DNA of 64,000 nt from a virus (taxonomy: Duplodnaviria; Caudoviricetes): the IMG/VR virus record IMGVR_UViG_2974506496_000001, positions 128,001 to 192,000 of that record; one strand, written 5' to 3'. A program made the translations under genes and the position numbers. The notes under the pieces are model-generated. The model ran no database searches. It had not been told where the DNA came from and worked only from the letters and a program-made list of their open reading frames with translations. Positions 7,223-41,379 of this stretch are shown here, piece by piece (the first letter of the stretch is position 1; the number at the start of each line of letters is the position of its first letter).

Positions 7223-8757
7223 TCAGAAAAAATGAAGCTGCTGCCGGTGTAGAACTGGCACAGTTACTCACCCGTTCTGGTGTGAGTTTAGTTGCTCAGG
7301 ACAACCTGCCACTGGGCGCCCTGCGTCTGGCCACGGAAGTGGTTACACCTGTTAGCGATGATGATGTCGAAGCCACACTGGTAAATCGCACGAAAGCGGT
7401 GATGCTGGGCGGGGTAGAAGAAGATGGGTCACCGCGCATGATTCCGTCTGAACACGGTTATGCCAAAAGTCGTCTGGTTGATGCGATGGCTGCCGGTGTG
7501 AAAGCGGTGATCAGTGCGGCTCGTACTACGGTCATTCCGTTGATCCGCAGTTCACACGATGCGGTAGACAAATATGTCGCTGAGAAAACTGACCCGCTGG
7601 CGATGATGCCGGACCTGGCCGTTTACAACTACGACGCGGTGTGGGATTCGCAGATCGTCGATGGTGTGGTTACGCACTACGCACAGGTAGCGCTGGTTGG
7701 CATGCCGATCGTTAGCCTGCCCGATCTGAGCGATGAACAATTGGCTGAGCTGGTCTCTTCTGGTTCATCTGAGCTGCGTGATTTTGTTCAGCGTCTGACT
7801 GCGTCTCAGCCGGATCTGGTGCGGGCGATCTATCAGGTGTGGTTCCAGGGTGCAGCGGTGTCTGATTCGGATGACTTCAGTTATCTGAGCCGCTCGCTGA
7901 CGGTGACTGCGGATGCACGTGCGTTGGCGATTACCGGTAATGATCCACTGGATGTGCGTCGTTCGTACGAACCCATCGTACTGGCGTATCTGATGGCTGA
8001 CAACCTGTACAACAACCCGGTTGCGGGTTCAGGTCTGGGTGCTGATCGCTATGCCATGGTGACGTCTGCCTTCCGGGCGCACTTTGCCAAATGCATGGAG
8101 CGGATCTATCGCGTGCGTTCAGGTAACCTTGATCGTAAGATCCTGGTCATTAGCATGCCGGTGGTTGACTCTTGGCGTTCTTATGCGCTGACCGGTGAAC
8201 GTCTGCTGATCAATGGTGATGTGTATAAATGGTACCTCGAAGCCGGTGGGTCGGTGGAAGCGCTGGTTGGGAACTGCTATACGGAGCGTTCTATTAATGC
8301 CCGTACTATCCTTGATGCCAAAGACCGTCTCGAAGCGGAGTTTGCGCGTATTGGTAGCATGGCCAAATCCATTGCGGTCACTAACCTGCACACGCTGACC
8401 ATCCAGGGTATTTTGAACGTGGTGGAAAACCATGTGGTCAACGAGATCGATATCCAAGCGTGGGATAAGATGTACAGTAAGTACAACTACACCACGACCA
8501 AGAACGATGCGATCACGGATGTGCGTCATTACTTATCTTCTATTCAGAACGTTTCGACGTATGAAGCAGTGGATAATGTCCTGACCTATATCTTCGCCTC
8601 GATGATCTACGGTCCACTGGAAACCGCACCGTTCATGCTGGCCATGGCAACGTACCCTGATCAGACGCTGTCTCCACGTGAGATTGCGGCCCATGTTGAA
8701 ATCGACATGGTTCTCGACAACCTGCTGAACATGACGTACTACCGCGGCCTGCGTTGA
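7219..8757 (+). CDS. Putative virion/head protein of the vRNAP-protease module
   Basis: 512-aa ORF in operon; position between vRNAP and protease genes as in phiKZ-like phages. Confidence 0.6.
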   Translation: MIRKNEAAAGVELAQLLTRSGVSLVAQDNLPLGALRLATEVVTPVSDDDVEATLVNRTKAVMLGGVEEDGSPRMIPSEHGYAKSRLVDAMAAGVKAVISAARTTVIPLIRSSHDAVDKYVAEKTDPLAMMPDLAVYNYDAVWDSQIVDGVVTHYAQVALVGMPIVSLPDLSDEQLAELVSSGSSELRDFVQRLTASQPDLVRAIYQVWFQGAAVSDSDDFSYLSRSLTVTADARALAITGNDPLDVRRSYEPIVLAYLMADNLYNNPVAGSGLGADRYAMVTSAFRAHFAKCMERIYRVRSGNLDRKILVISMPVVDSWRSYALTGERLLINGDVYKWYLEAGGSVEALVGNCYTERSINARTILDAKDRLEAEFARIGSMAKSIAVTNLHTLTIQGILNVVENHVVNEIDIQAWDKMYSKYNYTTTKNDAITDVRHYLSSIQNVSTYEAVDNVLTYIFASMIYGPLETAPFMLAMATYPDQTLSPREIAAHVEIDMVLDNLLNMTYYRGLR

Positions 8758-37665: not shown

Positions 37666-37741
37666 TGGTCTATAGTTCAGTCGGTAGAACAGCGGACTGT
37701 TAATCCGTAGGTCGCTGGTTCGAATCCAGCTAGACCAGCCA
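37666..37741 (+). tRNA. trnN: tRNA-Asn (GUU)
   Basis: Full cloverleaf: tggtcta/tagacca acceptor, gttc/gaac D arm, gcgga-ctGTTaa-tccgt, gctgg-ttcgaat-ccagc, encoded CCA. Confidence 0.97.
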
Positions 37742-38389: not shown

Positions 38390-39043
38390 ATGTCAACCGA
38401 AATGACCATTTCTCGTGCACTGGCTACAGTGAAGTCTTTGAATGTCCGCATCAAAGATATCTCTAAAAAGCAGGTGCTGATTCTGCCAACTGCCGGCACC
38501 GGCGACATGCAAGCGGTGATCAACAACAGCATCACTGTTACCGATGCTGAAGCCGCCATCCAGAATAACTGGAATGCGCTGAACGACATGATCAAAGTGC
38601 GTAACGATATTCGTGCGAAGATCATCCTGTCGAACGCCACAACCAAAGTGACTATCGCCGGTAAAGAATACACCATTGTTGAGGCATTGGACTTCCGCAA
38701 CTCCCTGGTCGAAAAGAAAGACACGGTTGAGTGCCTGAAGCGCAACTACGACTCCACAATGAAAGTTCACCGCCAGCAGGGCGACATCTACGAAAAGCGT
38801 TTAAGCGATGTGCGCTCCGAAGCCCTGGCCTCCGGCAAGAAGTTTGATGAAGCCAGCTTGAAGACCTTCACCGATCCAATCGATGTGAAGATGAAACCAG
38901 GCCTGATCGATCCTCTGGGTATCTCAGCAGTTATTGAGAAGCTGGACAAAGAGATCGCTGACTTCGAACTTAACGCCGACTACGCGTTGTCCGAATCTAA
39001 CGCAACGACCAAGATCACTGTTGAACTTGGTAACATTGCTTAA
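38390..39043 (+). CDS. Coiled-coil protein, DIP1984/septicolysin-like, directly upstream of a large ncRNA
   Basis: MTISRAL..K.L..RI, SNATTKVTIAGKEYTIVEAL, IDPL.I...IEKL..EI..FE...DYALSESNATT; family assigned from motif recall only. Confidence 0.65.
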   Translation: MSTEMTISRALATVKSLNVRIKDISKKQVLILPTAGTGDMQAVINNSITVTDAEAAIQNNWNALNDMIKVRNDIRAKIILSNATTKVTIAGKEYTIVEALDFRNSLVEKKDTVECLKRNYDSTMKVHRQQGDIYEKRLSDVRSEALASGKKFDEASLKTFTDPIDVKMKPGLIDPLGISAVIEKLDKEIADFELNADYALSESNATTKITVELGNIA

Positions 39044-39139
39044 CCCGTATTAAAAGGCTTGTCTTCGTTTGACGAAAGATCAAACACCGCCTTCCTATTT
39101 GGCCGGATGGAAGTAAAATAACCGGCCAGCCATTATACA

Positions 39140-39205
39140 TCTGTAGGTCGCAGGTTCGATTCCTGTCGGGGTGAAACCCGTAGCTCAGTCGGTTAGAGCA
39201 GCAGA
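39140..39205 (+). ncRNA. Circularly permuted tRNA-like domain (T arm, looped acceptor, D arm)
   Basis: tctgt-aggtc-gcagg ttcgatt cctgt-cggg gtgaaa cccg-ta-gctc agtcggtta gagc-a-gcaga. Confidence 0.85.
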
Positions 39206-39278
39206 ACAACTGCTTATGCTAAAAGCAATGATCTTTGGGATCATCAATGGTGTACTGTGAGCACCTTGAAATCACAGG

Positions 39279-39402
39279 TCTAAAGCTTAAAGCTATAACG
39301 TATAATGACTAAAGCTCTAAAGGTTTAAACTTATAACGTTAAAAAGATCTACACTCCCTGATGACTGTGTTCGTCGGGCTATAACGCTAAAACCTTTTAA
39401 AC
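39279..39402 (+). repeat. Degenerate 7-8-nt tandem repeat (YTAAAGC / TATAACG-like)
   Basis: tctaaagc ttaaagc tataacg tataatg actaaagc tctaaagg tttaaac ttataacg ttaaaaag, a hairpin, then ctataacg ctaaaacc ttttaaac. Confidence 0.7.
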
Positions 39403-39517
39403 AAATCCTGGGTATTCCTCCGCTGTGAGGATGGGTAATGTGGAGTGTGGTCTGCCACGTATCGCCGCCAGGCTGTCTTGCGGAGACAAGTCTTTCCCTT
39501 TTGCAATAGGTGACCTA

Positions 39518-39688
39518 ATGACAGGCACTGCCTTAATGATCATTGAGCAACCACAACTGGAATTCAATATCCCGTTGAGGTCGCCTTATCCTACCCTTCA
39601 TGACGTAAGGTTTTCTATGTTCCCTGTTATGGCTGAGCCTGAGAACGAAGGGTTTGAACAAGATTCAGAAACTGACGCATTACATTGA
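39518..39688 (+). CDS. Possible small acidic protein (56 aa)
   Basis: AGGTGA RBS before the ATG at 39518; short, so uncertain. Confidence 0.35.
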   Translation: MTGTALMIIEQPQLEFNIPLRSPYPTLHDVRFSMFPVMAEPENEGFEQDSETDALH

Positions 39689-40106
39689 GGAGATTCAATC
39701 GCGCAGGTTCTTAACCGACTAAAGCCAGGGTGACTTGTGTTATCTTGGTAACAGGTGAACGCGTCGTTACAGCGCATACGACTGAATGGGCCGATCCCCC
39801 CTTCGGAGTAATATTAGCCCAGATCCATTGCACACCAATAAGTCAATGGCTAGCCAGACACACAAAAAACTATTATGCTTCGACAGATGGTAGGTGCCTG
39901 ATTACTACAATTCGATTCGATACCTCAACTAAAAGGCGGACACAAGGGCCGTTATGAGTGAAGCACCAGGAAACTATACCTTGGTAAGGCCCCAGGCTTT
40001 TTATCCTTACCAAGGTTCTCTTTCTTTTACTACCTGATAATGGGTGGATGCCTTAGTCACCTTTCTTTCACAGAGGCAACAACCTAAGGCGTCTGCCCGC
40101 CCTATA

Positions 40107-40216
40107 ACCCGAGTCGTCTAGCGACAAGACACCGTCAGACCCATTTGGTAACAGCCTAACTTACCTGTTACCCAACCTATGACGGAAACAGGTGGTTCAA
40201 CTCCACCTCTTGGGTC
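40107..40216 (+). ncRNA. tRNA-like element with a 42-nt insert replacing the anticodon loop
   Basis: acccgag/cttgggt acceptor, gtct/agac D arm, ccgtca/tgacgg stem, aggtgg-ttcaact-ccacct T arm; no CCA. Confidence 0.65.
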
Positions 40217-40293
40217 TTAGGTATTGGCTTAGGCAAACTCCGTCGCGGCTTTACCCTCAATAGGCTGCGTTGCGTAAGTCAGTACCGTGCTGT

Positions 40294-40449
40294 GCGTCGT
40301 ACTCCCTGATGAGGCGCCCGACGTTAAAAGGCACGAAACGGGGACAGAGGATACTCCATCGGTGATTGCAATCAACCACGCTGGGGTTTATACAGGCACT
40401 TGAGAGACACGCTGGTTTCTCGTTGCCTGTCCCTTTGTCCCGTCGGAGT
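40294..40449 (+). ncRNA. Type I hammerhead ribozyme; predicted cleavage 3' of C40444
   Basis: Stem I actcc/ggagt, core CUGAUGA (40306-40312), stem II, GAAA (40335-40338), stem III acggggacagagg/cctttgtcccgt, GUC triplet; loop II cgacgt pairs with 5' gcgtcg. Confidence 0.85.
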
Positions 40450-40853
40450 CCCTTGCGTTCCTGGAGGGATGACACCGCGTTAAGACTGATCCCCTTAACG
40501 AAGTTGCAATAGCCGGGGGTGTTTCTTGCAAAGGTTACTCACAGCAGACTGCCTCCGCCAATTGCGGATGGCTTAGGCCCTCAGTCCGTCAGGAAGTTGT
40601 CGTTGAATAAATGACAGCTGGACTAGGGTTGCATTATAACCCGGCAAATGTGCAGCCTGTTTTTTCTTCATGTGTACCTGAACCGGTTCAGGAGCCTACA
40701 GATGAGGGAACGACGGGAAGCATATTGCTACCGATCATTTGCTGTGTGACCGGGCCAAGGATGGCATATACCGGAACCAGTAGTCGTATTCAGCGCAGGT
40801 GCGCTTTCTCTTCCTTATCTTGTGGTTAAACCGCGCCTGTCTGGATCATACGT

Positions 40854-40881
40854 GCCGGGGTCACACCTGGCGCTTATGCCG
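40854..40881 (+). terminator. Hairpin plus TTATGCCG closing the RNA island
   Basis: gccggg-gtcaca-cctggc then gcttatgccg. Confidence 0.55.
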
Positions 40882-40956
40882 TCTGAGTTGTATCCTTTTT
40901 TACTCCTACATTACGAAGCTGATATACCCATCAATTCAATTTAAAGGAGTTTAGTT

Positions 40957-41379
40957 ATGAAGAACGTTACTATTGCTATTGGTCGTAATCCGCTGTCCAA
41001 CCAGAAATGGATTCTGGATCAGATCGTGAGTCTGGTGAAGTCCGGCAAGTCCGACATCTTCATCGTCAATACTGACTCACGGGTTTCCACTGCGGTACTC
41101 AACGCCTTGAAAGAGTATACGAAGGATGATGCGGAATACACTCGCTTGGTTGCTGAGAACGGTGTCATGTTCCACACAACCGAGACCGAAGACCTGCAAA
41201 CGCTGGATGATGCTAAGATGAACAGCCGCTCGGCGATTCTGGCCAACATGCTGTTCAGCCTGCCATTGGTCAAACAGTGTCGTGATCTGGCGCGTCACCA
41301 CGTCCCGGTCTTTGTGAGTGCCACACCTGCCATGTCTGGTAAGGTGCCGGCTGCCGCCCATACCAAGTTCCTCGATTAA
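40957..41379 (+). CDS. Hypothetical protein
   Basis: AAGGAG RBS; TACATTAC promoter-like site at 40907-40914. Confidence 0.7.
   Translation: MKNVTIAIGRNPLSNQKWILDQIVSLVKSGKSDIFIVNTDSRVSTAVLNALKEYTKDDAEYTRLVAENGVMFHTTETEDLQTLDDAKMNSRSAILANMLFSLPLVKQCRDLARHHVPVFVSATPAMSGKVPAAAHTKFLD

Follow-up and report, generated by a model that had tools for sequence, protein, structure and literature searches.

The stretch of viral DNA analysed here, 64,000 nucleotides (nt) of IMG/VR record IMGVR_UViG_2974506496_000001 (positions 128,001 to 192,000) and referred to below as the window, carries at 40108-40215 of its plus strand a conserved tRNA-shaped RNA that, as judged from sequence comparison, is unable to decode. 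On balance, we lean towards the view that this element is a non-decoding tRNA mimic forming the 5' module of a processed non-coding RNA of ~0.8 kb (40108 to ~40890), which would also contain a hammerhead ribozyme and would use the motif AACUUA in the long arm of the mimic as an interaction site. We assign the element to a family, so far undescribed, in which non-decoding tRNA mimics are coupled to a hammerhead; neither the mimic nor the ribozyme was found in RNA catalogues or papers. By its sequence the window phage is an Agricanvirus, a PhuZ-encoding jumbo phage of Erwinia, and the 1.8 kb around the element are 99.3-99.6% identical to Erwinia phages Rebecca, MadMel, Deimos-Minion and Desertfox and 81% identical to Erwinia phage AH06. 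The element sits within a stretch of ~1.9 kb that is poor in open reading frames (ORFs; 39044-40956), and no ORF of at least 40 amino acids (aa) overlaps its core (40014-40228). Its parts are as follows.

40108..40215 (+): tRNA-shaped module, predicted to be non-decoding; covariance model matches, covariation, minimum free energy (MFE) z = -3.5, single copy in the phage genome
40108..40113 (+): acceptor 5' strand CCCGAG, pairing with CUUGGG at 40209-40214; U40215 is at the discriminator position
40116..40130 (+): D arm, GUCU / loop AGCGACA / AGAC; stem kept, loop variable
40132..40185 (+): extended 'anticodon' arm; three double changes in each of its two stems
40158..40163 (+): AACUUA in the apical loop; invariant in 10/10 distinct family members found
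40190..40208 (+): T arm, 6-bp stem AGGUGG/CCACCU and loop UUCAACU, with U54, U55, C56, A57, A58 and G53-C61

The extended arm is built from a 6-bp stem (40132-37/40180-85), an internal loop (40138-46 and 40173-79) and an 8-bp hairpin (40147-54/40165-72) closed by a 10-nt loop (40155-64). In the D-arm region the tRNA-like positions U8, A14 and A21 are found at 40114, 40120 and 40126, and MFE folding of 40108-40215 recovers the acceptor, the T arm and the long arm with its hairpin, at -36.4 kcal/mol and z = -3.5 relative to dinucleotide shuffles. An earlier note on this DNA, made by a model from the letters alone, had drawn a tRNA-like RNA with a structured insert instead of an anticodon loop, and the strands it named are all in place: acceptor acccgag 40107-13/cttgggt 40209-15 with one G-U pair, D arm gtct 40116-19, agcgaca loop and agac 40127-30, arm ccgtca 40132-37/tgacgg 40180-85, hairpin ggtaacag 40147-54/ctgttacc 40165-72 and T loop TTCAACT at 40196-202. 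Comparison with relatives refines this drawing, the conserved acceptor being 6 bp (40108-13/40209-14) and the T stem also 6 bp (40190-95/40203-08), so that the acceptor/T stack is still 12 bp long; the 40107-40215 pair is confined to the window phage and AH06.

Three IMG/VR relatives (L124, L125 and L126; ~68% nucleotide identity) were found through the neighbouring protein gp209, and their homology to the window starts at 40108 (L124, L125) or 40101 (L126), compared with 40107 in AH06. A covariance model (R1/R2), first built from the window and AH06 with the structure of the earlier note, retrieves L124, L125 and L126 at E ~1e-19, and R1/R2 matches across AH06, L124, L125 and L126 range from E 1e-19 to 1e-33. 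In an alignment of the five sequences (~68-81% identity) all 150 pair cells are standard and 30/30 pairs are kept, eight of them although both bases differ: the 6-bp stem and the insert hairpin account for three each, and the acceptor and the T stem for one each. When the partners were shifted by 1-3 columns as a control, 0-1 double-changed pairs were left. The acceptor helix shows C-G to U-A and G-U to G-C substitutions. The covariation check that the earlier note proposed thus comes out in favour of its cloverleaf. The loops vary at places that are variable in tRNAs, and AACUUA stays constant within an apical loop that in this clade reads CCUAACUUA(C/A) and is 10-11 nt long. A 14-mer scan of IMG/VR gave chance matches only, and two wide-gap patterns of the element found 97 loci, among which filtering with R2 left L180 and L207 (the same sequence) as the only new members.

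A second clade comprises Salmonella phage SA002, Erwinia phage pEa_SNUABM_48 and the IMG/VR contigs L130, L135 and L180, with gp209 only ~42% identical to that of the window phage and an element of 99-100 nt at the equivalent position. The second model ranks this element first within its loci, at 27.5 and 23.1 bits; such a score is not decisive by itself because the model also scores true tRNAs, R2 (filters off) matching 8/8 T4 tRNAs at up to 27 bits. What is decisive for membership, at the level of sequence and predicted fold, is that the second-clade sequences each fold alone to the common shape, with a 7-bp acceptor, 4-bp D stem, 5-6-bp stem, internal loop and 6-7-bp hairpin, the last capped by a 7-nt apical loop, AACUUAC. 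The letters of acceptor, stem and hairpin differ among the members while pairing is kept, with covariation at 3 positions of the acceptor. A stop codon precedes these elements by 8 nt, and their last letters are ACCA or ACCU. In phages of the pEa_SNUABM_48 type the first mimic is separated from the hammerhead by a further tRNA-shaped element, whose T arm is canonical (R2, 17.6-18.3 bits).

L122:7066-7189, L135:2404-2527 (-) and L130: second tRNA-shaped element, R2 match

The element has the acceptor, D, anticodon and T arms of a cloverleaf, and a 42-nt structured insert stands in place of a 7-nt anticodon loop with U33. U33 is absent from both candidate loops (CAACCUA and the apical CCUAACUUAC), and the 3' internal loop is unconserved. 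The earlier note expected standard finders to miss the element, as they do: ARAGORN with default settings calls only a tRNA-Asn (37666-37741) in the window, and Rfam at E <= 10 gives zero matches on 40107-40215, including RF00005 and RF02553. The phage encodes a single true tRNA, no tmRNA is found by ARAGORN, and the element falls into no Rfam family. The proposal of the earlier note of a non-decoding tRNA mimic is likewise upheld by the conserved tRNA-shaped fold together with an arm that is much too long to decode. With canonical tRNA (RF00005) the element shares a 7/6-bp acceptor, a 4-bp D stem, a variable region of 4-5 nt, a T arm with UUCAA, the residues U8, A14, A21 and G53-C61, and the 12-bp acceptor/T stack; it differs in having neither the 7-nt anticodon loop nor U33, in an arm ~14 bp longer and in the lack of an encoded CCA here.

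Other non-decoding RNAs resemble the element in part. YrlA and Y RNA-like molecules (RF02553; PMC4201824) are also non-decoding tRNA mimics of bacteria and phages in which a long helix replaces the anticodon side, but YrlA is circularly permuted, with its ends inside the long stem and a capped acceptor, whereas the element keeps the normal tRNA order with open acceptor ends. The stable RNAs C and D of T4 (species 1 and 2), encoded where the T4 tRNA cluster ends, are non-decoding and lie beside phage tRNA genes, and rnaC has a canonical T arm at its end; they differ from the element in size and fold, no ribozyme is annotated adjacent to them, and R2 (filters off) matches neither rnaC nor rnaD. 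In the engineered tRNA scaffold, reportedly the method of Ponchon and Dardel for recombinant RNA, a foreign hairpin replaces the anticodon loop of a tRNA body for cellular processing and stability. That scaffold is man-made, and the resemblance is a functional analogy only; hammerheads have been used alongside it (PMC3401473).

The second module, which the earlier note missed, is a hammerhead 78 nt downstream of the tRNA mimic, with its core at 40306-40338.

40294..40449 (+): type I hammerhead; thirteen loci fit, and stems I and III and the pseudoknot covary
40294-99, 40301-05/40445-49 and 40306-12 (+): pseudoknot strand, stem I and core CUGAUGA
40313-34 and 40335-38 (+): stem II with loop II (loop II partner CGACGU at 40319-24) and GAAA
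40338-43/40438-43 (+): stem III, enclosing a 94-nt branched insert; C17 is 40444
40444..40445 (+): self-cleavage site GUC/G, predicted from the sequence

SA002 matches window positions 40296-40339 at 84%, in a stretch that reads CUGAUGAG...CGAAAC, and the first seven phage sequences have the core CUGA(U/A/C)GA followed by stem II and GAAA. A pattern of core and loop II brought in six additional IMG/VR loci and, from metagenomes, seven distinct ones, of which two duplicate IMG/VR sequences. The full table covers 13 loci, and another five from metagenomes were inspected by eye; in the tabulated loci the elements that the pattern had not specified also fit a type I hammerhead. In 13/13 tabulated loci CUGANGA, G10.1-C11.1, GAAA and A15.1-U16.1 are present, with N7 being U, A or C and H17 being C, U or A and never G. 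Stem III has 5-14 bp, is closed by A15.1-U16.1 and encloses 4-98 nt, and stem I has 2-7 bp, pairing with the strand just 5' of the core. A strand further 5' forms a pseudoknot of 5-7 bp with loop II, which occurs in 7 compensating versions (ACGUCG/CGACGU, ACGUCU/AGACGU, AAGUCG/CGACUU, ACGUCC/GGACGU, AUGUCG/CGACAU, AGUCC/GGACU and UGUCG/CGACA). With shuffled flanks, both stems and the pseudoknot reappear in <=0.7% of trials per locus. These sequence features are those of a type I hammerhead: the catalytic core, three helices with covariation and an open stem I, and a tertiary contact that joins loop II to the side of stem I. A second hammerhead was considered at 39353, where the 12-mer ACTCCCTGATGA is repeated, and was rejected: no GAAA follows it, and in L125 and L126 it corresponds to another motif.

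In three relatives the ribozyme starts at the CCA end of a true tRNA, either tRNA-Arg(TCT) or tRNA-Leu(TAA).

L129:12400-12583 (-), L133:772-960 and L234: minimal tRNA-abutting hammerheads with a stem III loop of 4-7 nt; the pseudoknot strand overlaps A76

The association of hammerhead and tRNA shape is frequent and not exclusive. Pseudoknotted hammerheads are documented in nature, including in phages, with transcript processing (PMC3088659), and the phage and prophage examples share with the present ribozyme the full core, three helices, the loop II pseudoknot and a phage intergenic setting that would suit transcript processing. They differ in that here stem I is short and stem III holds a branched insert of 94 nt, the range in relatives being 4-98 nt; the present ribozyme is also missed by Rfam and often joined to tRNAs or mimics. 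The theta ribozymes (PMC10879173) are likewise small self-cleaving ribozymes directly 3' of phage tRNA genes, with a proposed role in processing; they are of another class, like that of hepatitis delta virus, and cut at their own 5' edge, releasing the tRNA 3' end, whereas the type I hammerhead here would cut at its 3' side and stay attached to the tRNA or mimic.

Between the two modules and beyond the ribozyme, conservation continues.

40220..40286 (+): linker hairpin with conserved loop ACCCUCA; in RNAalifold of five sequences 5 pairs are kept through double changes, and it forms in the MFE fold
40445..40900 (+): conserved non-coding 3' domain, ~80% identical to AH06 and 68% to L125/L126

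The 3' domain ends in a hairpin (40853-76) that is homologous to the terminal hairpin of SA002, ...UUAUGCCGUCU. After it, at 40905-40914, stands the motif CCTACATTAC, which may be a phage promoter; SA002 has TCTATATTAC (L121 ~7237-7246), and in both clades the motif lies ~45 nt before the next gene, which in the window is gp209 (ATG at 40957). A 72-aa ORF at 40611-40829 (+) is unconserved, stopping after 4 codons in AH06 and lacking homology over 40557-40706 in L124, and this part is probably non-coding RNA. Because of the conserved non-coding 3' domain, the terminal hairpin and the motif before the next gene, the tRNA mimic appears to head a separate RNA locus of ~0.8 kb and not to be a simple 5' leader.

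The proposed mechanism is that host RNase P would cut between 40107 and 40108, with the tRNA-like body as its recognition signal, and that the hammerhead, being complete and covarying, would cut itself between 40444 and 40445. This would yield an RNA of 337 nt that begins with the tRNA-shaped domain and carries a 2',3'-cyclic phosphate at its 3' end; if the 3' side were trimmed as in tRNAs, a mimic of ~108 nt would result instead. The tRNA body could confer processing, stability and a handle for tRNA-binding factors, the cyclic phosphate could further stabilize the 337-nt product, and the AACUUA loop on its long arm is likely to be a site of specific interaction. The earlier note had offered an RNase P processing signal as one possible role, and this fits the data in that the conserved sequence begins no more than a few bases from the predicted site and that the SA002-clade element lies 8 nt after a stop codon.

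Several observations weigh against this picture. In the window, as the earlier note remarked, no CCA follows the element (U-CUU) and the D loop has no GG; GG is present in AH06, L124 and L126, the base after the discriminator is C in 7/7 inspected sequences (five of the Agricanvirus type, SA002 and SNUABM_48), and SA002 reads ACCA. The bases at -1/+1 of the predicted RNase P site (A/C) are unlike the usual RNase P favourites. Rfam hammerhead models at E <= 10 match neither the window nor the minimal L129 form (a 121-nt stretch), the only nearby Rfam result being a chance-level match to RAGATH-32. The ribozyme of the window has just 5 bp in stem I, and positions 10.2/11.2 of its stem II form a G.A mismatch; because of these two features cleavage activity could be low. 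In L131/L132, L232 and L238 the ribozyme follows a coding gene. Within the locus and the sequence flanking it, no complement of the AACUUA loop keeps a conserved position; TAAGTT occurs 42 times in the window, where 24 copies would be expected, and the AACTTA copies in the window are not recurring hairpin loops. Finally, the sole evidence from RNA libraries is one 196-nt metatranscriptome contig over 40198-40393, with unreadable ends and strand, which may be DNA carry-over. It is listed under two run ids that are possibly one data set, among four runs examined as contigs (two RNA or RNA-guessed, two of unrecorded type), and we take it as a weak hint of expression; elsewhere RNA cover is absent, to which we attach no weight.

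One alternative is that the tRNA shape is pure punctuation, a cis-acting signal for RNase P cutting comparable to mitochondrial 'tRNA punctuation', which would separate an upstream mRNA from a downstream RNA and release a piece without a function of its own. We regard this as unlikely, if worth keeping in mind. The element does lie 8 nt after a stop codon in SA002 and SNUABM_48 and 90-150 nt after a P-loop ORF in Agricanvirus relatives, and the adjacent hammerhead is also a putative cutter that elsewhere follows tRNAs or coding genes; yet an acceptor/T minihelix suffices for cutting, while compensating changes preserve the long arm in both clades, with AACUUA invariant, and the window phage has lost the upstream ORF with the element intact. 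That the mimic is instead a decoy or handle in a conflict over RNA damage, binding or distracting a host anticodon nuclease or a tRNA-modifying or sensing protein beside the phage RtcB ligase and a YrlA-like RNA, seems to us quite doubtful. Such a role would suit a phage that carries RtcB (420 bits) and a YrlA-like permuted tRNA mimic (39142-39205), as well as the 7-nt, anticodon-like AACUUAC of the SA002 clade, whose CUUA is similar to C34-U35-U36-A37 in the anticodon loop of a Lys(CUU) tRNA, but with A33. The apical loop of the Agricanvirus clade is, however, 10-11 nt and not 7, the phage has no Ro60/TROVE gene, and RtcB lies ~120 kb away.

The sequence comparison is much harder on a switchable RNA, which the earlier note had also suggested and in which the cloverleaf would compete with three alternative pairings and a hairpin. 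The complementary stretches exist in the window phage: gcctaa (40154-59) can pair with ttaggc (40229-34), acccatt with the upstream aatgggt (40039-45), and ccta with tagg as an extension of the acceptor, and the 15-bp hairpin (40042-56/40084-98) is also there. None of these is conserved: AH06 has ttgcac in place of ttaggc, L124-126 read acagcatt in the arm, the hairpin is absent from AH06 and L124-L126, and the ccta/tagg extension is not kept. The upstream partners are absent from AH06 and L124-L126 because homology begins only at 40101-40108. Relatives that lack aatgggt, the hairpin and ttaggc keep the cloverleaf, and the MFE fold takes up ttaggc inside the covarying linker hairpin; the comparison largely refutes the switch, which we consider very improbable. 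A decaying tRNA pseudogene, or a decoding tRNA with an intron, is scarcely credible. True tRNAs are present in the corresponding region of related phages, and ARAGORN with introns allowed, silent at default, does at -ps80 report a tRNA-Gly(acc) at 40108-40216, i(31,35), with a 35-nt intron. Yet deleting the insert or replacing it by a 7-nt loop gives no call; a group I intron would need more than 35-42 nt; the loop CAACCUA has A33, and relatives read AAACUCUA, CAACCCA, CAACACA, GUAAU and UGGUGU; and compensating changes with an invariant apical loop speak against decay. The earlier reading is thus partly supported, its tRNA mimic standing and its switch falling, and the larger hammerhead-bearing locus having escaped it. 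A non-decoding tRNA mimic at the head of a processed RNA remains the reading that we favour.

The surroundings of the locus contain further features.

40034..40106 (+): upstream spacer with the 15-bp hairpin; not conserved
L123:103-621 and L002:4086-4604: P-loop ORF, GPRQxGKT
39142-39205 (+): YrlA-like permuted tRNA module (T arm, capped acceptor, D arm); partial RF02553 match, 44.5 bits against a gathering threshold of 69

The spacer begins just after ~40033, the site at which a 172-aa P-loop ORF (GPRQxGKT; phrog_2586) of close relatives is absent. This ORF is found upstream of the mimic in AH06 and L123-L126 and just before tRNA-Tyr in the SA002 clade; it is missing from the window phage and the Deimos-Minion-like phages and present in the near-identical L123 and two other sequencing runs. 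It matches no solid Pfam family and phrog_2586 carries no assigned function; its AlphaFold model (pLDDT 75.5) gives weak matches to RecA-like/DEAD-box domain 1 (TM 0.4-0.5, E >= 1e-3). Further upstream, 39635-39955 and 39971-40016 are conserved and non-coding, with 72-74% identity to AH06 and L124; by eye the stretch 39635-40016 resembles the region after tRNA-Tyr in SA002, and its end is marked by an 11-bp inverted repeat and, at 39986-40005, by a hairpin followed by a T run that resembles a terminator.

The YrlA-like module lies 0.9 kb upstream of the mimic, just after gp207, is ~70% conserved in SA002 and SNUABM_37/48, and is presumably the 'first' tRNA-like RNA implied by the earlier note, which called the present element the second. 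The gene directly preceding it, gp207 (38390-39043, +), is a 'tail fiber protein' in RefSeq and belongs to phrog_1491 (E 1.3e-72) with no Pfam match. DUF7873 had no match among the upstream proteins tested, and Ro60/TROVE and Rnl2 genes were not found in the phage genome. The RtcB RNA ligase (intact, 420 bits) is encoded at G000:C1:44575-45723 of the phage's own genome, outside the window. The substrates of RtcB, 2',3'-cyclic phosphate and 5'-OH ends, are the ends left by a hammerhead.

The deposited annotations of 39044-40956 hold one small hypothetical ORF only. The genome paper of the Erwinia jumbo phages mentions tRNAs and RtcB and neither non-coding RNA nor intergenic regions (PMC6690015). 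In published annotation these phages have a single tRNA at most, and the 1.9-kb gap, which appears to hold at least two tRNA mimics and a ribozyme, is without RNA genes. Literature searches pairing hammerheads with phage tRNA-like RNAs, jumbo phages or phage pseudoknots returned general or unrelated papers only, and those for YrlA in phages returned known Y RNA work only. Among published systems YrlA, the T4 RNAs C and D, the phage hammerheads and the theta ribozymes come nearest.

It is conceivable, though a long shot, that the tRNA mimic, the YrlA-like RNA, the hammerhead and RtcB form one RNA-centred counter-defence kit of nucleus-forming phages, in which AACUUA would act as a pseudo-anticodon to capture or misdirect a host defence protein that cleaves or senses tRNA, and the cyclic-phosphate end would protect the RNA or mark it for RtcB. 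The relatives are culturable and their host is the plant pathogen Erwinia, which can be worked with in ordinary laboratories, so that the predictions are directly testable. An unpermuted tRNA body with a conserved display arm would be a natural counterpart of the engineered tRNA scaffold and a new architecture among the few known non-decoding tRNA mimics. The partnership of mimic and hammerhead would give a phage hammerhead a concrete, testable job, and in relatives the ribozyme sits on the CCA end of real tRNAs.

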